A stretch of 64,000 nucleotides of DNA from an uncultured Bdellovibrionales bacterium (GCA_964421125.1 CAYQVD010000003.1:5779-69778); one strand, 5' to 3'; numbered from the stretch's first letter, positions 976 through 61,625 are shown. Notes: a model not told the origin generated them from the letters alone. Translations and numbers: made by a program.

Positions 976-1107
976 AAAAAAGTGTGATAATATGGTGAGT
1001 AAATAAGGGTTTTTTATGCTTAATAATAGCGTGATTAAATACAAGCTTTCTTTATTATTAATAAGTTTGATTTTGCCTGAAATCGCAATTTCAAATATAA
1101 ATAAAAA

Positions 1108-1980
1108 ATGAATAAAATTCTCATCGTCGAAGATGATCCGATGTTATCTGAGATATATCAAAAAAAGTTTTCGCAAGAAGGAAATTTTGAAGTTTTGACA
1201 GCGATTTCAGGTAGTGAAGCTGAGAAGAAAATAAGAAGGGAAAAACCTGATTTAGTGTTATTGGATTTGGTGTTACCAGAAAAGGATGGATTCGAAATTT
1301 TGAAAGATCTTAGAGAAGATTCTAGTCTTGATGATATTAAAATTGTTATTTTTTCAAATCTTTCTCAAGAAGAGGAACAACAAAAAGCTAAGACTCTTGG
1401 GGCGAATGGTTTTATCGCTAAATCTGATTTTACTCCTCAACAAATTGTTTCTGAAGTTAATAAAATTATTGGAGAAGATGATAATAGTCAGAAAAAAACA
1501 GATTCAGAAAAGATGATACAGGAAGACAAAGGGGGAGAAGAAAATAAGGCGGTTAAGGGAAGAAAAACAGTTAAAAATAGTAATATTGCTGTTGATTTAG
1601 GATTTACTCCTAAGATTTTAATCGTTGAAGATGAAGAAGTTTTTTTGGAAGTTTTTGGAATAAAATTAAAAGATTCTGGATTTGAAGTGGATACTGCTTC
1701 GAATGGTGGATGGGGATTGAAACTTGCGGATAAAAATAAATATGATGCAATTTTATTGGATATTGTGATGCCAGTTTTGAATGGCGTTGATTTAATTAAG
1801 AAGCTTCGCAAAAAAGGTGAAAACAAGGAAACACCAGTGATTATTTTATCTGGATCGATTGATGAGCAATCACAAAGAGATGAAGTCTTGAAGGCTGGAG
1901 CAGTTGACGTGTTGATAAAAACTCGTGTAACTCCGAGTCAAGTAGTTGATTGTGTTAAAAGTCATATCAAGAAGCAATAG
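1108..1980 (+). CDS. Response regulator with two CheY-like receiver (REC) domains and no output domain
   Basis: Two copies of the ILIVEDD...LLD...P REC signature (residues 1-120 and ~170-290), separated by a K/E-rich linker. Confidence 0.75.
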   Translation: MNKILIVEDDPMLSEIYQKKFSQEGNFEVLTAISGSEAEKKIRREKPDLVLLDLVLPEKDGFEILKDLREDSSLDDIKIVIFSNLSQEEEQQKAKTLGANGFIAKSDFTPQQIVSEVNKIIGEDDNSQKKTDSEKMIQEDKGGEENKAVKGRKTVKNSNIAVDLGFTPKILIVEDEEVFLEVFGIKLKDSGFEVDTASNGGWGLKLADKNKYDAILLDIVMPVLNGVDLIKKLRKKGENKETPVIILSGSIDEQSQRDEVLKAGAVDVLIKTRVTPSQVVDCVKSHIKKQ

Positions 1981-2061
1981 TGATGTTAAAAGTAGCTTCA
2001 AGGAGCTCCAAATAATACTGGGGAATGGATATTGATTGTTTCTAATAAAAAATGATTTAAA

Positions 2062-2781
2062 ATGTTGCAAGAATATAAAATAAAAACAGAACAATTTGAG
2101 GGACCACTTGATTTGTTGTTGGAATTGATTGAGAAAGAAAAGCTTGATATTACAAGATTGTCTATTGCGACAGTGGCAGATGATTTTTTGAAGTTTATTG
2201 AAAATAATACTGAAATTAATTTGGCAAATTTAAGTGAATTTTTATTGACTGCTTCGCAGTTAATTTTAATTAAATCGAAAGCTCTTTTGCCGCTTTTTGA
2301 ATTTACTCAAGAAGAGGAAGAAGAAATCGTTGATTTAGAAGAGAGGCTTTTGGAGTACAAGAGATTTAAGGATGCTTCTAGTAAGGTTGGAGAATTATTT
2401 TGTTCTTCAATGAAATGTTTTTCCAGAAAAGAAGAAAAAGATATTGATTTCAAGAAGTTTGTTGATCCGAAAATGAACGGAAAAAATTTATTAAATTTAT
2501 ATAAAAGAGTTATTATTAATATTCCTCAAGAGGAAAAAATGATTGAAAGAGTAATGGAAAAGGTTGTAAGTCTTGAAGATAAAATGGTTGAATTGAAAAC
2601 TTCATTAGAAAAGAGGATGAAAGTGGCTTTTGCAGATACAATTAAGAATGCGACTGGGAAGGTTGATGTGATAGTTACTTTTTTGGCGATGCTTGAAATG
2701 GTCAAACAGCGATCTATAGCAGTTGAACAAGCGGATTTATTTGGTGATATTTTATTAACATCAAGAAAACATGTTGAATAA
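2062..2781 (+). CDS. scpA: Segregation and condensation protein A (ScpA kleisin)
   Basis: N-terminal FEGPLDLLLELIEKEKLDITRLSIATVADDF is typical of ScpA; scpB lies immediately downstream. Confidence 0.8.
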   Translation: MLQEYKIKTEQFEGPLDLLLELIEKEKLDITRLSIATVADDFLKFIENNTEINLANLSEFLLTASQLILIKSKALLPLFEFTQEEEEEIVDLEERLLEYKRFKDASSKVGELFCSSMKCFSRKEEKDIDFKKFVDPKMNGKNLLNLYKRVIINIPQEEKMIERVMEKVVSLEDKMVELKTSLEKRMKVAFADTIKNATGKVDVIVTFLAMLEMVKQRSIAVEQADLFGDILLTSRKHVE

Positions 2782-3325
2782 AAATATAAAAGGAGAAATT
2801 GAAGCAATTTTATTTGCCACCGGAGATTCAGTAGAGATTTCTAAAATTGCAAAGTTTTTTAAGATTTCAAAAGAGAGTGTAAAAAAAGAAATAATGAATC
2901 TTGAAAATGATTATTTATCTAAAAAATCTGGATTAATTATTGTGACAAAAGGAAATCGAGTGCAACTTTCAAGTGAGCCTAACTTTGGTGAAGTGGTTAT
3001 GAAGTTTATGAATAAGGAGGTTGGAGAGGCACTTTCGCCAGCTACCTCAGAGGTATTGGCAGTGGTTGCTTACAGAGGACCTCTTACTCGAGCTCAAATT
3101 GAATATATTCGGGGAGTGAATTGTAGTTTTACCTTAAGAAATTTGGCGATGAGAGGATTGGTCGAAAGAAAAGAGAATCCAGATGATTCTCGTTCATATT
3201 TATATGAAATAAGTTTTGATTTTTTAAATAGTCTTGGAATTAAAAAAATTCAAGATTTACCTGAATATGAAGAATTAACTAAAAAACAAGAAGAAACAAT
3301 AAATGAAATCAAGAACGAAACTTAA
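2771..3325 (+). CDS. scpB: Segregation and condensation protein B (ScpB)
   Basis: GEIEAILFATGDSVEISKIAKFF... is a winged-helix ScpB N-terminus; 4-nt overlap with scpA. Confidence 0.75.
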   Translation: MLNKNIKGEIEAILFATGDSVEISKIAKFFKISKESVKKEIMNLENDYLSKKSGLIIVTKGNRVQLSSEPNFGEVVMKFMNKEVGEALSPATSEVLAVVAYRGPLTRAQIEYIRGVNCSFTLRNLAMRGLVERKENPDDSRSYLYEISFDFLNSLGIKKIQDLPEYEELTKKQEETINEIKNET

Positions 3326-14509: not shown

Positions 14510-15868
14510 ATGTCACGTATAAGAAAGATTAAATCAAAAAAGTTAGAAGTTGCAAAAACTGCGATAAAAAGAACAAAAAAATTGAAACCAAAACAGTTTC
14601 AAACTGTTCGAGGAATGCGAGATATTCTTCCCGATGTGCAACCTTATTGGCAAAAAGTAAGAAAAGCATTTGAAAAAATTTCAAATGATTATAGTTATCA
14701 ACGAATTGATCTTCCGTTAGTTGAATTTCGAGAGCTTTATGAACGAGGAACTGGAAAGAATACTGACATTGTTGAAAAAGAGATGTTTAAATTTAGAACT
14801 CAAGGTAATGATGATGTTGCTTTGCGACCTGAAGGTACCCCTGGTGTTGTGAGAGCTTATTTGCAAAATGGAATGCAGTCTTGGTCAAAACCAGTAAAGC
14901 TTTCCTATATGGGGCCAATGTATCGATATGATCGTCCACAAGAAGGTCGATATCGAGAGTTTTATCAATTTGGTTTTGAAGCAATTGGTGAAAAAGATGC
15001 AATCTTGGATGCACAAGTAATTCAGATGGCTCTTCGAGTCTTTAAGCTTATTGGATTTAAAAAGCTTTCATTACAAATTAATAGTATCGGATGTAGTGAA
15101 TGTCGACCAAGTTATAATTCTTTATTAGTGAGTTATTTAAATAATCGGAAGAAATCTTTATGTATGGATTGTAAGAAGAGACTGAAAAAAAATCCTTTAA
15201 GAGTTTTGGATTGTAAAGAAGAGAAATGCACACAAGTTGTTTCACAGGCTCCTCAAGCAATCGATCATCTTTGCAAGGAATGCAAGGATCATTTTACTTT
15301 CTTACTTGAGTGTTTGGATGAATTGGATGTTCCCTATGAGATTAATTCAAAGCTTGTAAGAGGTTTGGATTATTATACTAAAACAGTATTTGAAATTTGG
15401 TCCACAAATGACGAAAAAGGTGCAAAAATGGCACTTGGTGGTGGTGGTCGATATGACGAGCTTGTCGAATCATTAGGAGGGAAGAAAACTCCAGGTGTTG
15501 GATTTGCGGCAGGAGTTGACCGAGTGACTGAGAAGATGAAGGAGATTGGCGTGAAAGCTTTTTATCCAGCCCCTCCAAGAGTGTATTTAGCACAGCTTGG
15601 TGATATGGGGAAGAAGAAGAGCTTGAAAATATTTGAAGAATTGGAAAAAGCAGGGATTGGTGTGGCAGAAAGTTTTGGACGAGGAAATCTTCGTTCTCAA
15701 CTCAATCAAGCTAATCAACTTGATATGGATTTGGTTTTGATTATTGGTCAAAGAGAGGCACTTGATGAAACTGTGATTATTAAAGATATGAAATGTGGTA
15801 GTCAAGAAGTAGTTGCATTTAATAAGGTTGTTAATCAGGTAAAAAAGAGATTAAAGAATAATCAATAA
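14510..15868 (+). CDS. hisS: Histidyl-tRNA synthetase carrying a Cys-rich (4x CxxC-type) insertion
   Basis: Class II motifs (RGMRDILPD; FRPEGTPGVVRAY; RYDRPQEGRYREFYQFG; GGGGRYD). Insertion ...GCSECRPSY...CMDCKK...CKEEKC...CKECKDHF between motifs 2 and 3. Confidence 0.9.
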   Translation: MSRIRKIKSKKLEVAKTAIKRTKKLKPKQFQTVRGMRDILPDVQPYWQKVRKAFEKISNDYSYQRIDLPLVEFRELYERGTGKNTDIVEKEMFKFRTQGNDDVALRPEGTPGVVRAYLQNGMQSWSKPVKLSYMGPMYRYDRPQEGRYREFYQFGFEAIGEKDAILDAQVIQMALRVFKLIGFKKLSLQINSIGCSECRPSYNSLLVSYLNNRKKSLCMDCKKRLKKNPLRVLDCKEEKCTQVVSQAPQAIDHLCKECKDHFTFLLECLDELDVPYEINSKLVRGLDYYTKTVFEIWSTNDEKGAKMALGGGGRYDELVESLGGKKTPGVGFAAGVDRVTEKMKEIGVKAFYPAPPRVYLAQLGDMGKKKSLKIFEELEKAGIGVAESFGRGNLRSQLNQANQLDMDLVLIIGQREALDETVIIKDMKCGSQEVVAFNKVVNQVKKRLKNNQ

Positions 15869-37195: not shown

Positions 37196-38983
37196 ATGTT
37201 AAGAACGCATACATGCGGAGAATTGAATAAAACCAGTGAAGGTCAGGAGGTGACTTTGGCAGGTTGGGTTCATCGTAGGAGAGATCATGGAGGTATTATC
37301 TTTATTGATCTTCGGGATCGTTATGGGCTTACTCAAATTAAGTTTGATGTTTCGAATAATCCAGAAATTCAAGAAGAAGCTGAAAAATTAAGAAGTGAAT
37401 GGGTTATTCAGGTAACTGGAAAAGTCTTGAATCGTCCAGATAATATGATTAATTCAAAACTTAAAACTGGTGAGGTTGAAGTTTTTGTGGAGAAGCTTGA
37501 TATTTTGAATAAATCAAAAACGCCTCCTTTTGAGCTTGATGAAGAAAAGTCAAATGAGGCAAATGAAAATTTAAGGTTAAAATATCGGTTTATTGATTTG
37601 AGACGACCAGAATTGCAAAAACTTTTGGCTCTCAAGGCTGATTTTTTTGAACATTTGAGAAGCTATTTTAAAAAAGAAGGGTTTTTTGAAATTCAAACTC
37701 CAATTCTTGCAAATTCTTCTCCTGAGGGAGCACGAGACTTTGTGATTCCGTCACGACTTCATCCTGGAAAATTTTATGCTCTTCCGCAAGCTCCGCAGCA
37801 ATTCAAGCAATTATTAATGGTAGGAGGAGTAGATAAATACTTTCAAATTGCTCCATGTTTTCGAGATGAGGACCCAAGAATGGATCGGCATTATGGAGAG
37901 TTTTATCAACTAGATATGGAAATGAGTTTTGTTGAGCAAGAGGACGTTTTTGCAGTAATGGAGCCGGTGATGATTGAGTTGACGGAGAAATTTTCTGACA
38001 AAAAAATAGTTAACCTTGAAGAAGACGGAAGTTTCAAGAAGATTCCTTGGAAAGAGGCAATGAATAAATATGGAATAGATAAACCAGATTTGAGATTTGA
38101 TTTGGAAATTAAGCCTGTTACTGAGTTAGTGAAGGATTGTGAATTTGCAGTTTTTGCTGGTGCGGTCGAAAAAGGAGGAGTAGTTCATGCTTTAAAAGTT
38201 GATTCTGGTGCAAAATTTACTCGAAAAGAAATTGACGAACTTACTGAAATAGCAAAAGAAAAGGGTGCGAAAGGATTGGCATATATTGTCTTGGAAGAAG
38301 ATGGAAGCTTGAAGTCTCCGATTGTGAAATTTTTGGGAGAGACTCTGGTTCAAAAGATTATTACAGAAGTTGAGGCGAAGTTGGGTGATATCATTTTCTT
38401 TGGAGCAGATGAATGGAGAATCGTTTGTGAGAGTCTTGGGGCTGTTCGAAATGAATGTGCTGAAAGACTTGGTCTTAAGGATAATAAAAAAGCTGCTTGG
38501 TGCTGGATCGTTGATTTTCCAATGTATGATTATTCAGAGATTGAAGAGGGAAGAATTGATTTTGGACATAATCCATTTTCAATGCCTCAAGGAGGGATGA
38601 AAGCTTTGGAAGAAAAAAAGCCTTTGGATATTCTAGCTTATCAATATGATTTAGTAATAAATGGGTTTGAAGCTTCTAGTGGAGCGATTAGAAATCATGA
38701 TCCAGAGGCTATGTATAAAGCGTTTGAAATTGCTGGTTATTCAAAAGAAGAAGTAGACAGTCGATTCGGTGCAATGATTGAAGCATTTAAATATGGAGCA
38801 CCTCCACACGGAGGAAATGCACCTGGAATTGATCGAATCTTGATGGTTTTGCAAGACTTGAATTCTATTCGTGATATTTATGCTTTTCCAAAAGATGGGA
38901 GTGGTAAGGATTTAATGATGAATAGCCCAAGCGAGATTGATGAAAAGCAGTTAAGAGAATTGAATATAAAGAAGCTGAAATAG
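37196..38983 (+). CDS. aspS: Aspartyl-tRNA synthetase
   Basis: OB-fold N-terminus (LRTHTCGELN), class II motif 2 FRDEDPRMDRHYGEFYQLDMEMSF, motif 3 GGNAPGIDRILM, GAD insertion. Confidence 0.9.
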   Translation: MLRTHTCGELNKTSEGQEVTLAGWVHRRRDHGGIIFIDLRDRYGLTQIKFDVSNNPEIQEEAEKLRSEWVIQVTGKVLNRPDNMINSKLKTGEVEVFVEKLDILNKSKTPPFELDEEKSNEANENLRLKYRFIDLRRPELQKLLALKADFFEHLRSYFKKEGFFEIQTPILANSSPEGARDFVIPSRLHPGKFYALPQAPQQFKQLLMVGGVDKYFQIAPCFRDEDPRMDRHYGEFYQLDMEMSFVEQEDVFAVMEPVMIELTEKFSDKKIVNLEEDGSFKKIPWKEAMNKYGIDKPDLRFDLEIKPVTELVKDCEFAVFAGAVEKGGVVHALKVDSGAKFTRKEIDELTEIAKEKGAKGLAYIVLEEDGSLKSPIVKFLGETLVQKIITEVEAKLGDIIFFGADEWRIVCESLGAVRNECAERLGLKDNKKAAWCWIVDFPMYDYSEIEEGRIDFGHNPFSMPQGGMKALEEKKPLDILAYQYDLVINGFEASSGAIRNHDPEAMYKAFEIAGYSKEEVDSRFGAMIEAFKYGAPPHGGNAPGIDRILMVLQDLNSIRDIYAFPKDGSGKDLMMNSPSEIDEKQLRELNIKKLK

Positions 38984-43623: not shown

Positions 43624-43764
43624 GATTTTGGAGAAGTACTGAATAAAATGAATAAAAAATAAATTTTTCAAAGGTTTAATTCAAAGACTAGGAGTTTATT
43701 GGAGCTTCTAGTCTTTTGTAAATAAAAACACTTAATGTAAATTAGGTGTTTTAAAATATGAAAG

Positions 43765-43837
43765 TGGGCGCAGAGGGATTCGAACCCCCGACCATCAGCT
43801 TAAAAGGCTGTTGCTCTACCAACTGAGCTATGCGCCC
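43765..43837 (-). tRNA. tRNA-Lys (anticodon UUU)
   Basis: The reverse complement folds as a cloverleaf: acceptor GGGCGCA/TGCGCCC, D-arm GCTC-AGTTGGTA-GAGC, anticodon loop CTTTTAA, T-arm GGGGG-TTCGAAT-CCCTC. CCA is not encoded. Confidence 0.8.
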
Positions 43838-49068: not shown

Positions 49069-51990
49069 ATGAATTCAGTGAAAACAGCGACTCCGAAATA
49101 TAACTTTAAATCCATTGAGAAGAAATGGCAGAAATATTGGGAGGAAAACAAGACTAATCAAGTTGATTTAGAAAAGGCTGAAAATCCTTTCTATAATTTG
49201 ATGATGTTCCCATATCCTTCAGCAGAAGGTTTGCATGTTGGAAATATGTATGCTTTTACTGGAGCAGATGTCTATGGACGTTTCAAAAGACTTCAAGGGT
49301 ATGATGTTTTTGAGCCAATTGGATTAGATGGATTTGGTATTCACAGTGAAAACTATGCAATTAAGATTGGAGAACATATCAATGAATTCTCCAAGCGAAG
49401 TGAAAAAAGATTTTATGAGCAATTAAGCTTGGTCGGGAATATGTATGATTGGTCTCGAACCGTTGAGACTTATAAAACTGATTATTATAAATGGACTCAA
49501 TGGCTTTTCTTAAAAATGTTTGAAAAAGGGTTGGCTTATCAAAAGAAAGCCAAGGTTAATTGGTGTCCTTCTTGTAAGACAGTGCTTTCAGATGAACAAG
49601 TAGTCCAGGGAAAATGTGAGCGATGTGATAGTCAGGTTGAGAAAAAGGAACTAAAACAATGGTTTTTCAAGATTACTGATTATGCAGATCGGCTTCTTGA
49701 AAATTCTCAAAAAGAAGATTTTGATTGGCCAGCAGATGTAAAATTAAATCAACAAAATTGGATTGGAAAATCTGAGGGAGCCTCGATCAAATTTCCAATT
49801 TCCAATTTCCAATTTCCAAATAAATCTCAAAATTCAAATTCTCAAAAAAAGGATAAGTTTATTGAAGCTTTTACTACTAGACCAGACACTTTATTTGGGG
49901 CGACTTATATGGTGGTTGCACCAGAGCATGAAATTCTACAAAATCAAAAATCAAAAATCAAAAATCAAAAAGAGGTGTTTGAGTATGTTAAGAAATCTTT
50001 AAATAAATCGGAGCAAGAAAGAAAGGAAGAAGAAAAAACAAAGACAGGAGTTGAGTTAAAAGGAGTCAAGGCAATTAATCCAGCAACTAAGGAGGAAATT
50101 CCAGTTTGGGTGGCTGACTATGTTTTGGCTGGTTATGGAACGGGAGCGATTATGGCGGTTCCAGCGCATGATGAACGTGATTTTGAATTTGCGAAAAAGT
50201 TTGGATTGGAAATTAAAGATGTTGTTGTTCCATACATTAAAGATAATCCAAGAGATGATAAGGAAACTGAAGAAAGGGATGCTGTTGTTGGAGTTGTTAA
50301 AGATCCCAAAACTAATAAATATCTTTGTTTGAAATGGAATAAAACAGAATGGCAATCTTTTCCATCTGGAGGGACTGACGGAGATGAAATTGTGGAGGCT
50401 GGAAAGAGAGAAATAAAAGAAGAAACTGGTTATATTGATTTGGAATTTAAAAAAGAACTTGGGAGTCCAATCTTTGCAGAATTCTATCGACCCCATAAAG
50501 ATTCAAATGTAATTGCAAAATTTAGATATCTATTATTTGAACTTAATAGCGATGAACAAGTTGAAATTGAAAAAAAGGAAATGGAAATACATGAGCCTTT
50601 GTGGATTGATGAAGAAAAGATAGAATCTTTTATTAATGTTTCTAATCAGAAAATTGTTTGGGAGCGATTGACTCAAGGAATAAAATCTTTTTGTGGAGAA
50701 GGAGTCAGTATTGATTCAGATTTTTTGGATGGACTGAAAACTGCTGAAGCAAAAACTAAAATGATTGAATGGCTTGAAGAAAATAAAGTTGGTAAAAAGG
50801 CTGTTGATTATAAGTTGCGAGACTGGTGTGTTTCAAGGCAAAGATATTGGGGACCACCAATTCCAATTATTCATTGCAAAAATTGTGGAACGGTGCCAGT
50901 TCCAGAAGAAGATCTGCCAGTGGAGTTGCCACCAATGGATGATTTTTTACCAGAAGGAAAAGGAAAAAGTCCACTTGCGAAGAATGAAGAATTTGTGAAA
51001 GTGAAATGCCCAAAGTGTGGAACGGATGCAGAAAGAGAAACTGATGTTTCTGATCCATTTGTGGATTCATCTTGGTACTTTTTTCGATATCCTTCAACTG
51101 AAATTGAAGATAAGCCTTTTGATAAAGAGCGTACTAAAAAATGGTTACCAGTGGATAGCTATATTGGAGGCAAGGAACATACTGTTCTTCATTTGCTTTA
51201 TTCTCGTTTTGTGACGATGGTTTTGCACGATTTGGACTATATTGATTTTGATGAGCCTTACAAAAGATTTTTTGGGCATGGGCTTATCACCAAAGATGGA
51301 GCAAAAATGTCAAAATCAAAAGGAAATGTAGTGAATCCAGATGAGATGATTGAGAAATATGGAGCAGATACAGTGCGATTATATTTGAGATTCTTGGGAG
51401 ATTTTTCTCAAGGAGGAGATTGGCGAGATAGTGGTGCTGAAGGAATTTTCAAGTTTGTGAAAAAACTTTGGGCAACTTTCTTTGAACTTGAAAATGTTGA
51501 AGGAAATGGGGTTGAAAAAACTAATATGATTGATAAAACAATTAAAGTGATTGGTGAAGATATCGAAAGACTTTCATTTAATACTGCTGTTGCAAGATTA
51601 ATGGAGTTTGTGAATTGGATTAGAGACAATATTTCAGAGTTTGATCAATCTCAGGCAAAAAGAGTTCAAGAAGTTTTGGCGCTTGTCAGCGCTCCAATGA
51701 TGCCACATATTGCAGAAGAATTTTGGAATCAAATTGGAAACGAGGATTCAGTGTTCAATTCAAAGTGGCCGGAGTTTAATGAAAATAATATTTTGGATGA
51801 TGAAATTGAACTTGTGGTTCAAGTGAATGGAAAAGTCAGAGATCGAATTCAGTGTCCAAGAGATGTTTCCGAAAAAGATGCAAAGAAATTGGCGACAGAA
51901 AGTTTGAAAATTAAATCTTACACTGAAGGAAAAGAGATAATAAAAACAATCTATGTTCCAGGAAAGCTTGTTAATATTGTTGCCAAGTAG
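49069..51990 (+). CDS. leuS: Leucyl-tRNA synthetase with an inserted Nudix hydrolase domain (973 aa)
   Basis: PYPSAEGLHVGN (HIGH variant), ZN-1 CPSCKT...CERCD, editing-domain blocks TTRPDTLFGATYMVVAPEH and GTGAIMAVPAHDERD, KMSKSKGN. Extra ~140-aa Nudix fold (..SFPSGGTDGDEIVEAGKREIKEETGY..) between the editing domain and the RLRDW block. Confidence 0.9.
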   Translation: MNSVKTATPKYNFKSIEKKWQKYWEENKTNQVDLEKAENPFYNLMMFPYPSAEGLHVGNMYAFTGADVYGRFKRLQGYDVFEPIGLDGFGIHSENYAIKIGEHINEFSKRSEKRFYEQLSLVGNMYDWSRTVETYKTDYYKWTQWLFLKMFEKGLAYQKKAKVNWCPSCKTVLSDEQVVQGKCERCDSQVEKKELKQWFFKITDYADRLLENSQKEDFDWPADVKLNQQNWIGKSEGASIKFPISNFQFPNKSQNSNSQKKDKFIEAFTTRPDTLFGATYMVVAPEHEILQNQKSKIKNQKEVFEYVKKSLNKSEQERKEEEKTKTGVELKGVKAINPATKEEIPVWVADYVLAGYGTGAIMAVPAHDERDFEFAKKFGLEIKDVVVPYIKDNPRDDKETEERDAVVGVVKDPKTNKYLCLKWNKTEWQSFPSGGTDGDEIVEAGKREIKEETGYIDLEFKKELGSPIFAEFYRPHKDSNVIAKFRYLLFELNSDEQVEIEKKEMEIHEPLWIDEEKIESFINVSNQKIVWERLTQGIKSFCGEGVSIDSDFLDGLKTAEAKTKMIEWLEENKVGKKAVDYKLRDWCVSRQRYWGPPIPIIHCKNCGTVPVPEEDLPVELPPMDDFLPEGKGKSPLAKNEEFVKVKCPKCGTDAERETDVSDPFVDSSWYFFRYPSTEIEDKPFDKERTKKWLPVDSYIGGKEHTVLHLLYSRFVTMVLHDLDYIDFDEPYKRFFGHGLITKDGAKMSKSKGNVVNPDEMIEKYGADTVRLYLRFLGDFSQGGDWRDSGAEGIFKFVKKLWATFFELENVEGNGVEKTNMIDKTIKVIGEDIERLSFNTAVARLMEFVNWIRDNISEFDQSQAKRVQEVLALVSAPMMPHIAEEFWNQIGNEDSVFNSKWPEFNENNILDDEIELVVQVNGKVRDRIQCPRDVSEKDAKKLATESLKIKSYTEGKEIIKTIYVPGKLVNIVAK

Positions 51991-58044: not shown

Positions 58045-59124
58045 ATGAAATTTGAAAAAGAATTTCCTCTATTTAAAACTAAAATAGAAGGGGTAGATAA
58101 AAAATTTAATTTATCGGATGTTCAAGATAGAAAAAAATATTTTGAAATTAAAGCTGGAGAAGAGATTAAAAAATTAAAAAAATATTTTGAAGAAGGAAAT
58201 ACTTTTATTGCTTATCTTCTAGGAAAGAAGAATGCAGGAAAGGGGACTTATACGAAACTTTTCATGGAATTATTCGGAAAAGAAAATATTGTGCATATTT
58301 CCATTGGAGATATCGTGCGTGATGTTCATGCTGAAATGAAAGATGACGAAAAAAGAAAAGAATTGCTTGATTATTTACATGAAAATTATCGAGGATATAT
58401 TACTCCAGAAAAGGCAATTGATGCTCTTCTGGGAAAGGATCAAAAAACACTTCTTCCCAATGAGTTTATTATGGCTTTGGCAAAAAGAGAAATTGATCAA
58501 GCTGGTAAAAAGATTGTTTTTTTGGATGGATTTCCGAGAAGTTTAGATCAAGTTTCTTACGCTTTGTTTTTTAAGGAGCTTGTAGATTATAGAAATGACC
58601 CAGATATTTTTGTTGCTATTGATATTCCTGAAGCGGTCATTGATGAAAGAATGAAGTATAGGGTTGTTTGTCCAAAATGTCATACACCAAGAAATTTAAA
58701 GCTTTTTACTACTGAAAAAGTTGAGCACAACGAAGATGAGAATAAATTTGAACTCATTTGTGATAATCCTGAATGTGATAACATTAAAATGACTTCTAAA
58801 GAGGGAGACAATTTGGGAATTGAATCTATTAGAGATAGACTTGAACTTGATGATATTTTAATTAATAAAATATTTTCTTTGCATGGCGTTTCTAGAATTT
58901 TACTTCGTAATGCCGTTCCGGTTGATAAGGCAGTTGAATATTTAGACGATTATGAAATAACCCCAGAGTATTATTATGAAAAAAATGATGATACAGGGGA
59001 AATAAAAACATTAGAAAGACCTTTTATTGTTAAAGATGACGAAGGAGTTGAAGTTTATAGTTTATTGGCTCCTCCAGTAGTGCTTTCTCTTATAAAACAT
59101 TTAGTCAAAACGCTCAAACTTTAA
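58045..59124 (+). CDS. Adenylate kinase-family protein with N- and C-terminal extensions (359 aa) and a zinc-type LID
   Basis: P-loop LLGKKNAGKGTYTKLFMELFG, NMP-binding HISIGDIVR, LDGFPRSLDQ, LID CPKCH...CDNPECD. Confidence 0.6.
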   Translation: MKFEKEFPLFKTKIEGVDKKFNLSDVQDRKKYFEIKAGEEIKKLKKYFEEGNTFIAYLLGKKNAGKGTYTKLFMELFGKENIVHISIGDIVRDVHAEMKDDEKRKELLDYLHENYRGYITPEKAIDALLGKDQKTLLPNEFIMALAKREIDQAGKKIVFLDGFPRSLDQVSYALFFKELVDYRNDPDIFVAIDIPEAVIDERMKYRVVCPKCHTPRNLKLFTTEKVEHNEDENKFELICDNPECDNIKMTSKEGDNLGIESIRDRLELDDILINKIFSLHGVSRILLRNAVPVDKAVEYLDDYEITPEYYYEKNDDTGEIKTLERPFIVKDDEGVEVYSLLAPPVVLSLIKHLVKTLKL

Positions 59125-60758: not shown

Positions 60759-61625
60759 ATGAAGAAGCAAAAAAAACAAATGGAGTCAATGGCACGTCCA
60801 ATGGCGATTACGATTAAGGCAGTTGTTCTGAATGGAAAAGGTGAGATTCTTTTGATTAAAAGAGGATTAGAAGAATTGAATGGTGGGAAATATGATTTGC
60901 CAGGTGGCCACATTGAAGCAGGAGAGACAATTGAGGAGGCGCTTATTCGGGAAATCAAGGAGGAAACAGGACTGGATGTGGAAAAAGGAGAAATTATTGA
61001 TGCAGTTGAGTTTCCAAAAGATAATAAACTTTTCAAAGAAGAAAAAAGAGGATTGAGATATATTTGTTATACTGAAGGTAAAGAGATTCAATTAAGCGAT
61101 GAACATCACAGTGCAGATTGGTTTTCAGTGGATGATGCCATTGAGGAACTTGATGAGAAAGATGGATTTGAAAATGAAAAGAGACAAACAATCTTAAAGG
61201 CAAAAGAATTACTAGAACGAAAAAGTTCAATGGATGGATGGAAAAGAGCCCTGGCAGATTTGGAGAATTTTAAAAAAAGAACTGCTGACTCAAATGCAGA
61301 ATTTAGTCAGTATTGCATAGAAGATTTTGTGTTTGAGATTTTGCCAGTGATTGATAATTTTGATTTGTCGCTTAAACATGTTCCAGAAGGAAAAGAAAAT
61401 GACGGATGGACTACAGGAATATTGCATATCAGAAAACAACTTGCTGATGTATTAGAAGGAAAAGGAGTTGTTGAAATTAAATGTAAGTCAGGAGACAAAA
61501 TTGATGAAACAGTTCACGAGGTAATTGCAGGAAATGGAAAAAAAGGAAAAGTTAAAAAGGTTATTAAGAAAGGATATAAGCTGAAGGAAAAGGTGATTCG
61601 ACCGGTGAGTGTGGAGGGAGAATAG
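60759..61625 (+). CDS. grpE: Nudix hydrolase domain fused to GrpE nucleotide-exchange factor
   Basis: Residues ~10-145: Nudix fold with perfect box GHIEAGETIEEALIREIKEETGL. Residues ~160-288: GrpE (WKRALADLENFKKRTADSNAEF...ILPVIDNFDLSL...GVVEI...KKGYKLKEKVIRPVSV). Confidence 0.75.
   Translation: MKKQKKQMESMARPMAITIKAVVLNGKGEILLIKRGLEELNGGKYDLPGGHIEAGETIEEALIREIKEETGLDVEKGEIIDAVEFPKDNKLFKEEKRGLRYICYTEGKEIQLSDEHHSADWFSVDDAIEELDEKDGFENEKRQTILKAKELLERKSSMDGWKRALADLENFKKRTADSNAEFSQYCIEDFVFEILPVIDNFDLSLKHVPEGKENDGWTTGILHIRKQLADVLEGKGVVEIKCKSGDKIDETVHEVIAGNGKKGKVKKVIKKGYKLKEKVIRPVSVEGE

Follow-up and report, generated by a model that had tools for sequence, protein, structure and literature searches.

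Bacterial aminoacyl-tRNA synthetases (aaRSs) are usually regarded as architecturally conservative, with added domains being mainly a eukaryotic theme. The leucyl-tRNA synthetases (LeuRS) of Thermus thermophilus (1H3N/2BYT) and Escherichia coli (4AQ7/4ARC) combine a Rossmann core bearing KMSKS with ZN-1, the CP1 domain with its T-rich, GTG and Asp motifs, and anticodon-binding and C-terminal domains. A curated exception model, ileS_w_GNAT (NCBIfam NF040702), describes a class Ia aaRS with an embedded N-acetyltransferase, and animals possess a LysRS/Ap4A/Nudix (NUDT2) and HIT (Hint1) axis in which a dinucleotide made by an aaRS is removed by a Nudix hydrolase.

The leuS gene described here lies within a 64,000-nt stretch of DNA from an uncultured, ultra-small bacterium (the window; coordinates count from its first letter). 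Its product shares all the above parts with the T. thermophilus and E. coli enzymes, but differs from the former in carrying a ~140 aa Nudix domain in place of a 15-residue CP1 loop (Tt 363-377), in being devoid of the leucine-specific domain (Tt about 579-635) and in its HIGH signature, which reads HVGN. As in ileS_w_GNAT, an aaRS is joined to an extra enzyme domain; however, synthetase and passenger are both different, and the window protein matches that model via the shared class I core only (66 bits vs a cut-off of 1999). No curated NCBIfam model for a LeuRS with a Nudix domain was matched. The LysRS/NUDT2/Hint1 axis, with its separate proteins, class II synthetase and signalling role, is a conceptual analogue only. 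The features of the locus are as follows.

49069..51990, + strand: leuS ORF, 973 aa, uninterrupted; bacterial-type LeuRS (TIGR00396) with Nudix insert
49234..49245, + strand: HIGH-like signature HVGN, aa 56-59, with Asn instead of the second His
49564..49626, + strand: ZN-1 cysteine cluster CPSC...CERC, aa 166-186
49795..49857, + strand: low-complexity linker PISNFQFPNKSQNSNSQKKDK, aa 243-263, at the CP1 entry
49873..49890, + strand: editing-site threonine-rich motif TTRPDT, aa 269-274
50137..50181, + strand: editing-site block GTGAIMAVPAHDERD, aa 357-371, with the universal Asp, aligned to T. thermophilus LeuRS
50227..50691, + strand: inserted segment, aa 387-541, Nudix domain and short linkers, against T. 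thermophilus LeuRS residues 363-377
50275..50622, + strand: Pfam PF00293 NUDIX match, aa 403-518
50368..50436, + strand: Nudix box GGTDGDEIVEAGKREIKEETGYI, aa 434-456, predicted catalytic helix with E448, E451 and E452
50482..50499, + strand: X-loop region FYRPHK, aa 472-477, 17-22 residues past the box, with a conserved aromatic pair and Lys
50578..50604, + strand: E504, H508 and W512, C-terminal part of the Nudix fold
50695..50736, + strand: CP1 resumes after the insert with GEGVSIDSDFLDGL, aa 543-556, aligning from Tt 378 onwards and kept in all homologues
50818..50853, + strand: RDWCVSRQRYWG block of the catalytic core, aa 584-595
51304..51318, + strand: KMSKS loop, exact, aa 746-750, with no leucine-specific domain before it

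Judged by its motifs, the gene product is a complete Patescibacteria-type LeuRS whose editing motifs are intact. The whole protein scored 914.2 bits against TIGR00396 (leuS_bact; cut-off 548.4), aligned to T. thermophilus LeuRS (1h3n) with an E-value of 9e-223 and yielded a full-length AF2 model with pLDDT 89.6 and pTM 0.80, in which linker residues 250-259 had a pLDDT <50. HVGN is the consensus in the closest LeuRS clade, HVGH occurs in more distant Nudix-bearing LeuRS, and the TIGN of TrpRS indicates that Asn is tolerated at this HIGH position in class I enzymes. The ZN-1 cysteines C166, C169, C183 and C186 were invariant in a LeuRS alignment (A4). The CP1 editing domain (PF13603) scored 187 bits; among aligned Nudix-bearing LeuRS, TTRPDT was kept in all, with minor substitutions only, and the GTGAIMAVPAHDERD block in nearly all, and GTG..AHD.RD, RDW and KMSKS were likewise retained, with minor substitutions in some. 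The leucine-specific domain, which both E. coli and T. thermophilus LeuRS possess, was absent from the window LeuRS and all aligned relatives: window aa 741 corresponds to Tt 578 and aa 745 to Tt 636, leaving ~57 Tt residues unmatched. This domain is not universal in bacterial LeuRS, and its absence does not exclude membership.

A self-contained Nudix domain of ~140 aa occupies the CP1 loop of this enzyme, with LeuRS motifs intact on either side. In the alignment with 1h3n, window aa 386 pairs with Tt 362 and aa 542 with Tt 378, so that 155 window residues stand against 15, a net gain of ~140 aa. PF00293 (gathering cut-off 21.1) matched at 32.2 bits (E 1.2e-7) in the whole protein and at 36.8 bits (E 4.8e-9) when 50230-50680 was searched alone. 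The segment folded confidently by itself (AF2 pLDDT 93.6, pTM 0.86), its Nudix blocks reached pLDDT 87-96 in the full-length model, and structure model and fold comparison agree on the alpha/beta/alpha sandwich of a Nudix fold. These data bear out an earlier sequence-only reading, which had noted the listed LeuRS motifs (HIGH-like, ZN-1, TTRPDT, GTGAIMAVPAHDERD, RDWCVSRQRYWG, KMSKS), all of them present, and had proposed that a Nudix domain of about this length was added to an otherwise complete LeuRS and would be found by a NUDIX HMM search of the translated ORF. It had placed the insert between the end of the editing domain and the segment leading into the RDW block. The insert sits inside CP1, not past its end: before the insert, PF13603 covers only model positions 1-150 of 185, whereas positions 1-185 are contiguous in the uninterrupted relative L076.

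The Nudix box of the insert, GGTDGDEIVEAGKREIKEETGY (aa 434-455), is exact in its REUxEExGU half (REIKEETGY). Relative to the consensus GX5EX7REUXEEXGU it is one residue short in the GG..E loop, where Asp439 aligns with the first Glu, in keeping with the earlier observation of a shortened box with its REx2EE glutamates retained; most homologues have a fully canonical box, with Glu where the window has Asp439. Across 72 aligned homologous inserts, whose mean column identity is only 25%, G434, E448, I449, E451, E452, T453, G454 and Y455 were invariant (72/72). One sublineage shows a joint substitution of the box Glu (to Q) and Arg (to A, M or K), which we read as the behaviour of an interacting pair. 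Toward the C-terminal part of the fold, W512 was invariant, E504 was Glu in 63 and Asp in 7 of the 72, and H508 was His in 50. In a comparison with the P0266 gene, the insert had a dN/dS of 0.087 and the LeuRS core one of 0.072. The insert is thus under purifying selection about as strong as that on the core. It evolves ~3x faster than the core. Strict conservation of the putative catalytic helix, together with this selection, suggests that the domain is catalytically intact, as first supposed.

The architecture is not unique to the window but widespread in public genomes. A search for homologues carrying the same insertion, as proposed earlier, recovered it at the same site in ~70 of the best 80 GTDB species-representative loci and in at least 150 protein clusters, and 265 50%-identity clusters matched a flank+Nudix+flank profile at E<=1e-30. 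Most hosts belong to the Patescibacteria (CPR); a gut clade labelled Bacilli/Tenericutes is also among them. Since site and similar length are kept across phylum-level CPR groups, the insertion is ancient. It is also dispensable, having been repeatedly lost or replaced: relatives with 72-77% identity in the LeuRS core are without it, and the LeuRS core tree requires at least 19 gains or losses. In some relatives the same CP1 loop is occupied by other inserts, nucleotidyltransferase-like in P0378 and of unknown type in P0338 and P0295. Others carry two or three Nudix boxes, or alpha/beta-hydrolase or GIY-YIG domains; the latter two enter LeuRS at other sites, the alpha/beta-hydrolase of P0279 and L015 lying N-terminal of the T-rich motif, in the window's linker region. 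With variants that combine up to three Nudix boxes with hydrolase and GIY-YIG domains, CPR leuS represents a natural experiment in domain accretion. Distances in core and Nudix correlated weakly (Spearman 0.22), which is more simply read as fast evolution with saturation. Replacement of the cassette by unrelated Nudix lineages was considered and rejected, as close relatives have homologous inserts of similar length; P0281 and P0288 may be independent Nudix types.

Related Nudix proteins also occur as separate genes. In L076, a leuS with uninterrupted CP1 is preceded, at a distance of 3 nt, by a separate gene for a Nudix of the same lineage, which shares 49-51% identity with the L013 and L006 inserts. 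Free-standing Patescibacteria Nudix proteins of ~160 aa (P0002, P0193, P0194; L065, L067, L068, L071, L073) belong to the same subfamily as the inserts, sharing the N-terminal PYF..ER extension, the REIKEETGY box and 36-43% identity; unlike the inserts, they are separate genes in varied contexts and form their own clade (45-61% identical mutually). Among them, a translation-related neighbourhood was seen only in L067, where the sister Nudix overlaps the end of pth and lies beside hisS, def and fmt (def and fmt were identified by eye from N-terminal sequences). P0196, at first a candidate standalone Nudix, proved to be a fragment of a broken LeuRS gene call. A second Nudix in the same 64,000-nt window, unrelated to the first, is fused to GrpE, and a metagenome scan with exact peptide patterns returned no relative of this fusion.

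Sequence and structure comparisons placed the insert among Nudix hydrolases of mixed specificity. The insert alone had no significant match among PDB sequences, and its family profile matched PDB Nudix chains with E-values of 1e-8 to 1e-5. The best structural neighbour, Enterococcus faecalis MutT/nudix 2AZW (18% identity, free-standing), is a structural-genomics entry that is itself uncharacterised and therefore allows no functional transfer. RppH and several ApnA hydrolases are among its closest characterised folds. Aquifex Ap4A hydrolase (3I7U), T. thermophilus Ndx1 (1VC8), Mycobacterium tuberculosis Rv2985 (9CXX), Chlamydia CT771 and E. coli RppH all have the Nudix fold, the box glutamates and an X-loop aromatic in common with the insert, but are only 15-21% identical to it and free-standing, whereas the insert is embedded in another enzyme. 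M. smegmatis MutT1 is a further structural neighbour, and its homologue in M. tuberculosis carries the annotation diadenosine polyphosphatase. The insert fell below every NCBIfam Nudix subfamily cut-off; the best RppH model, NF001936 (PRK00714 models), gave 30.3 bits vs 118, and no MutT family model was among the NCBIfam matches at E<=1. No PADLOC anti-phage defence family matched the insert at E<=0.01 and PHROG returned just a weak, generic Nudix match, and a defence or phage origin was rejected.

Some 17 aa past the Nudix box lies the X-loop, which makes contact with the X moiety of the substrate; Tyr at this place is correlated with ApnA hydrolases, a motif described by Dunn et al. 1999 and reviewed in PMC5389931. 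The window insert has F472/Y473 at +17/+18, with [FY][FY] in 71 and K477 in 69 of the 72 inserts, and so carries an aromatic of the kind associated with ApnA hydrolases, which is a correlate of specificity, not proof. In our preferred reading, which we hold to be moderately probable, the insert is an independent, active Nudix pyrophosphohydrolase carried in cis on LeuRS and probably directed at ApnA/NpnN. The module would be Mg2+-dependent and would work independently of aminoacylation and editing; nucleoside polyphosphates of the ApnA/NpnN type would be its most likely substrates, followed by 5'-polyphosphate or capped RNA ends. Carriage in cis, or directly upstream of leuS in one genome, would let a streamlined genome express the module together with the translation machinery, and might allow adenylate-derived by-products such as Ap4A to be cleared where aaRSs make them. 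Ap4A, tentatively raised by the sequence-only reading, is a plausible substrate that accords with the structural neighbours and with the X-loop aromatics; LeuRS is not among the strongest Ap4A producers, which counts against the preferred reading. Further points against that reading are the short box of the window insert with its Asp439, the dispensability of the domain, the occupation of its loop by other domains in some relatives, its faster evolution and the second, GrpE-fused Nudix of the window. An apparently intact second enzyme domain resides within the proofreading domain of an essential synthetase, and the arrangement is shared by much of an entire bacterial radiation, including 43 of the 120 closest LeuRS. 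Should its substrates be aaRS by-products, translation would be tied directly to dinucleotide alarmone or house-cleaning metabolism in organisms with very small genomes.

Alternatively, and this we regard as unlikely, the domain might be directed at RNA, removing 5' pyrophosphate or caps (ppp, NAD, Np4A) in the manner of RppH or NudC, with LeuRS serving as a ride to tRNA or nascent transcripts. RppH models are its best NCBIfam Nudix matches, E. coli RppH structures are among its top Foldseek matches, LeuRS binds RNA, and the L067 sister Nudix lies in the pth, hisS, def and fmt neighbourhood. However, the 30-bit RppH score is far under the cut-off of 118, and tRNAs are processed to a 5' monophosphate by RNase P, which leaves no obvious tRNA substrate.

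We give rather low probability to a broader proposal, in which patescibacterial LeuRS would be a multi-enzyme platform whose one to three Nudix domains (plus a serine-hydrolase in relatives) are coupled to aminoacylation and destroy Ap4A/ApnN or mis-activated adenylates at the source. If true, organisms of minimal metabolism would possess a cis-acting layer of aaRS quality control or alarmone control not known before.

Three further readings appear very unlikely to us. As an auxiliary proofreading step beside CP1 editing, the Nudix domain might hydrolyse mis-activated aminoacyl-adenylates or another LeuRS-bound intermediate, and the alpha/beta-hydrolase modules of relatives might similarly act on acyl esters. 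Placement within the editing domain, the repeated accretion of Nudix (up to three boxes) and serine-hydrolase domains on LeuRS, and the separate Nudix gene adjoining leuS would fit. Yet the canonical editing site is fully conserved and hence calls for no compensation, close relatives manage without the Nudix domain, and aminoacyl-AMP, an acyl-phosphate, is devoid of the pyrophosphate linkage that Nudix enzymes cleave.

Equally improbable is a non-catalytic role as a structural, ligand-sensing or RNA/protein-binding appendage, for instance one offsetting the missing leucine-specific domain. While every LeuRS of the set is without that domain, so are insert-free relatives such as P0283 and P0287, in which RDW-to-KMSKS spans 162 residues as in the window; and while one sublineage lost the box Arg and first Glu, the invariance of the three predicted catalytic glutamates and of EIxEETGY over deep divergence is not expected of a purely structural module.

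Finally, the CP1 loop of CPR leuS might be a hot spot for in-frame insertions and the Nudix a tolerated cargo with generic house-cleaning activity, a view to which we likewise assign little weight and which overlaps our preferred reading, an independent housekeeping hydrolase being common to both. The alternative occupants of the loop, the GIY-YIG and alpha/beta-hydrolase domains at other LeuRS sites and the patchy presence of the Nudix are consistent with it, and the GrpE-fused Nudix suggests that Nudix fusions to housekeeping genes may be opportunistic, not mechanistically coupled. Selection on the insert as strong as on the core, and a site and length conserved across phylum-level groups, argue against mere cargo, and the leuS-adjacent separate Nudix argues for a retained association.

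An assembly chimera or frameshift joining a separate Nudix gene to leuS is effectively refuted, given that ORF and composition are continuous across 50.2-50.7 kb, that LeuRS sequence picks up in frame after the insert, that the identical protein (P0265; in NCBI, JGI and ENA) is encoded on two contigs of 87.7 kb and 62.6 kb, and that the same junctions recur in ~70 independent genomes and at least 150 protein clusters.

A full-text literature search (LeuRS or aaRS with Nudix, CPR, editing domain, insertion, Ap4A) returned no description of a LeuRS with a Nudix insert, in agreement with the sequence-only reading, which knew of none, and the word 'tRNA' is absent from the Nudix-clan review PMC5389931. 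Public records of these LeuRS already contain precomputed Pfam NUDIX matches, and the source names read only 'leucine--tRNA ligase' or 'class I tRNA ligase family protein', an annotation gap by which Nudix-bearing proteins are recorded as plain LeuRS.

The open reading frame below runs through its whole length in one frame, with GC skew and GC content (0.29-0.40) showing no breaks in the region, and its product reads as a bacterial-type leucyl-tRNA synthetase (LeuRS).

49069..51990, plus strand: leuS, 973 aa, no interruption
49234..49245, within leuS: HIGH-like motif, HVGN in place of HxGH, aa 56-59
50227-50691, plus strand: insert, as placed by alignment to 1h3n
51274..51318, within leuS: KMSKS and the residues before it, leucine-specific domain absent, aa 736-750

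The protein scored 914 bits against TIGR00396 (cut-off 548), matched the Pfam families tRNA-synt_1, tRNA-synt_1g, the LeuRS editing domain PF13603 and Anticodon_1, and retrieved Thermus thermophilus LeuRS (1h3n) with an E-value of 9e-223 in phmmer. All LeuRS motifs listed in the sequence-only reading, among them the T-rich block TTRPDT and KMSKS, were found at their expected places, and the enzyme looks editing-competent. The closest clade has HVGN as its consensus too. Whereas the E. coli and T. thermophilus enzymes carry a leucine-specific domain before KMSKS, the window protein has none (aa 741 aligns with T. thermophilus residue 578 and aa 745 with residue 636); the domain is likewise missing from every aligned relative, Nudix-bearing and insert-free alike. 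N-terminal of the T-rich motif, where some relatives carry a hydrolase domain, the window protein has just a disordered linker of low complexity (aa 243-263), and in the full-length AlphaFold2 model the stretch aa 250-259 of this linker is the sole internal disordered segment, the first four N-terminal residues also having a pLDDT below 50.

Within this synthetase lies a Nudix domain, as had been proposed: PF00293 matches aa 403-518 at 32.2 bits in the context of the whole protein (cut-off 21.1), and the originally proposed segment gave 36.8 bits when searched by itself. Alignment to 1h3n sets the breakpoints at aa 386 (T. thermophilus residue 362) and aa 542 (residue 378), so that a 15-residue loop in T. 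thermophilus corresponds to 155 residues here; the interval first suggested for the insert agrees almost exactly with these bounds. Its description as lying after the end of the editing domain was slightly off. The PF13603 match preceding the insert reaches only model position 150 of 185, yet in an insert-free relative (locus L076) positions 1-185 are contiguous, which places the insert in a loop inside CP1, the editing domain. An AlphaFold2 model of aa 385-545, built from a 52-sequence alignment, was confident (pLDDT 93.6, pTM 0.86), as was the full-length model (pLDDT 89.6, pTM 0.80), in which the Nudix blocks reached 87-96.

Across 72 aligned homologous insert segments, mean column identity is 25%, with G434, E448, I449, E451, E452, T453, G454, Y455 and W512 invariant, K477 and L492 almost so, and residue 504 (E504 in the window) being Glu or Asp in 70. 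Most homologous inserts have a fully canonical GX5EX7REUXEEXGU box; the GG..E loop is one residue shorter in the window, whose box contains Asp439, and in a few others. In one sublineage that keeps EIxEETGY, Gln replaces the first Glu and, together with this, the Arg is changed to Ala, Met or Lys, a pairing that we read as a probable coupled change of two interacting residues. The Pfam match, the confident model and the conserved catalytic residues together bear out the original interpretation of an inserted, apparently intact Nudix domain.

We infer that the module is probably an active pyrophosphohydrolase operating independently of aminoacylation. Aminoacyl-tRNA synthetases (aaRSs) make Ap4A, and this, together with the characterised structural neighbours and the X-loop residues, makes (di)nucleoside polyphosphates our best guess for its substrate class. 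The guess is weak, because RppH-family HMM scores fall far under the cut-off, the insert-family profile matches PDB Nudix chains of mixed specificity, and the best fold match is an uncharacterised protein. In the X-loop, ~17 residues past the box, the inserts conserve an aromatic pair and a Lys, and an X-loop Tyr correlates with ApnA hydrolases (PMC5389931). Among other roles, RNA 5′-end processing appears unlikely.

The window also contains the following genes.

60759..61625, plus strand: Nudix-GrpE fusion, 288 aa (PF00293 85 bits, PF01025 109 bits)
14510..15868 and 37196..38983: HisRS and AspRS, ordinary domain architectures
43764..43837, minus strand: tRNA-Lys(UUU), the sole tRNA gene in the window
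58045..59124, plus strand: adenylate-kinase-like protein, 359 aa

The N-terminal Nudix domain of the GrpE fusion is fully canonical (box GGHIEAGETIEEALIREIKEETGL) and unrelated to the LeuRS insert, the likeness being limited to the Nudix box; a metagenome scan by exact peptide patterns found no relatives of the fusion. This second Nudix fusion counts against a specific mechanistic coupling to LeuRS, and in this genome Nudix domains may have a general tendency to fuse with housekeeping genes. As HisRS and AspRS are ordinary, domain accretion is not general to its aaRSs. A part for the insert in adenylate proofreading is considered very improbable, and we give equally little credence to a non-catalytic role for a domain whose catalytic residues are conserved. 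The adenylate-kinase-like protein matches ADK over aa 132-255 only; the long N-terminal extension before that has P-loop ATPase-like matches.

Patescibacteria also encode free-standing ~160-aa proteins of the same Nudix subfamily, of two kinds. Members of a sister clade share 45-61% identity with one another and 36-43% with the inserts, and their genes occur in varied genomic contexts; one (L067:3400-4483) overlaps the 3′ end of pth, encoding peptidyl-tRNA hydrolase, and adjoins hisS and ORFs that by eye resemble def and fmt. The other kind groups with the inserted forms: the Nudix gene at L076:492-977, whose product is 51% identical to the insert of locus L006, lies 3 nt upstream of a leuS (980-3220) with uninterrupted CP1. 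This arrangement may represent the fusion split apart or the state ancestral to it. That this Nudix lineage is found inside LeuRS or, at L076, beside leuS argues, from this one case, for a retained association.

A Nudix box is recognised by motif in 43 of the 120 closest LeuRS sequences, with a similar count by eye from Pfam. When mapped on a neighbour-joining tree built from the LeuRS core, presence is clustered yet patchy, requiring at least 19 changes versus ~59 with shuffled labels, and some insert-free relatives are 72-77% identical in the core. The insert evolves ~3 times faster than the core (distance 0.43 at a core distance of 0.14), although homology between inserts is clear among close relatives. 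Measured by Nei-Gojobori against the closest available gene, that of P0266 on locus L087, the insert has a dN/dS of 0.087 and the core one of 0.072, values that are approximate because dS is ~1. The insert is an intact Nudix fold under selection, and there is scant probability that it is a neutral passenger.

An artefact of assembly can effectively be dismissed: against the initial concern about chimerism or a frameshift, frame and composition are continuous, an identical protein (P0265) is recorded in NCBI, JGI and ENA and encoded on two contigs (87.7 kb and 62.6 kb), and the architecture recurs in many genomes. Scanning a single genome for each GTDB species showed at least 209 loci that encode a relative. 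The search for homologues with the same insertion, recommended at the outset, found it in ~70 of the best 80 loci, each with an ORF of roughly 900-1700 aa (stop to stop) or cut by a contig end and each with its Nudix box preceded by the editing motifs and followed by the RDWxxSRQR block. Measured in 69 homologues, the segment equivalent to aa 372-562 spans 187-203 aa. A flank+Nudix+flank profile, run exhaustively with HMMER over 1.84 billion cluster representatives, picked out 265 clusters (E<=1e-30); none of the top 150 scored below 182 bits, and most of these matched unbroken from the CP1 flank through the Nudix domain into the following flank.

Most record titles point to Patescibacteria/CPR lineages (Magasanik-, Nomura-, Moran-, Taylor-, Zambryski-, Wildermuth-, Gracili- and Peribacteria, Paceibacterota), and the closest species representative among the matches listed is Patescibacteria bacterium UBA2193. 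The homologues at L014, L041 and L052 are open only under genetic code 25 (UGA = Gly), a reading that for L014 and L052 agrees with their Peribacteria and Gracilibacteria labels. The same LeuRS-Nudix is also carried by a cohesive set of gut MAGs whose labels read Bacilli, Tenericutes or Mycoplasmatota, or at some loci Clostridia or Muribaculaceae (L024, L054-L061, L063, L066, L074, L077-L080). Their sequences group together among CPR sequences on the core tree, some with a divergent KMGKRYPE loop, and may reflect horizontal leuS transfer or mislabelled bins.

Source databases name these proteins only 'leucine--tRNA ligase', 'leucyl-tRNA synthetase' or 'class I tRNA ligase family protein'. The sequence-only reading knew of no described LeuRS with a Nudix insert, and full-text literature searches likewise found no paper describing one; a comprehensive review of the Nudix clan nowhere mentions tRNA (PMC5389931). 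A LeuRS with an embedded second enzyme is present, unremarked, in many public genomes, and is neither described nor functionally characterised in the searchable literature. An intact hydrolase inside CP1 would surprise an aaRS specialist, and the multi-Nudix, hydrolase and GIY-YIG variants even more so.

In some relatives the CP1 loop that bears the window's Nudix domain has different contents: a nucleotidyltransferase-like domain (PF14907/PF10706) in P0378, other inserts of ~100 aa in P0338 and P0295, and divergent Nudix types in P0281 and P0288. In P0266 (L087:880-4131), the nearest relative of the window protein at 87% overall identity, and also in P0279, a GIY-YIG domain (PF01541) of ~95 aa is inserted in frame in CP1, with the T-rich motif before it and the AHD motif after it. 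To the eye, these inserts look very similar in two hosts with more different cores, a hint of mobility. Directly upstream of leuS in L087 is a reverse-transcriptase-like ORF (weak RVT_1). Alpha/beta-hydrolase domains (PF00561, PF06821, PF12146) occur in relatives with or without Nudix (P0267, P0270, P0272-P0275, P0277, P0282, P0284 and others), their place being either ahead of the T-rich motif, towards the N-terminus, or in the stretch from the RDW block to KMSKS. The number of Nudix boxes rises to two or three in some LeuRS, P0007, P0008 and P0040 each having three. Three also occur in the 1735-aa frame (stop to stop) at L015:1280-6484, from a MAG labelled Candidatus Taylorbacteria, at ~aa 304, 470 and 973; two of its Nudix domains precede the T-rich motif, and the frame further contains a GHSLG serine-hydrolase (alpha/beta-hydrolase) motif.
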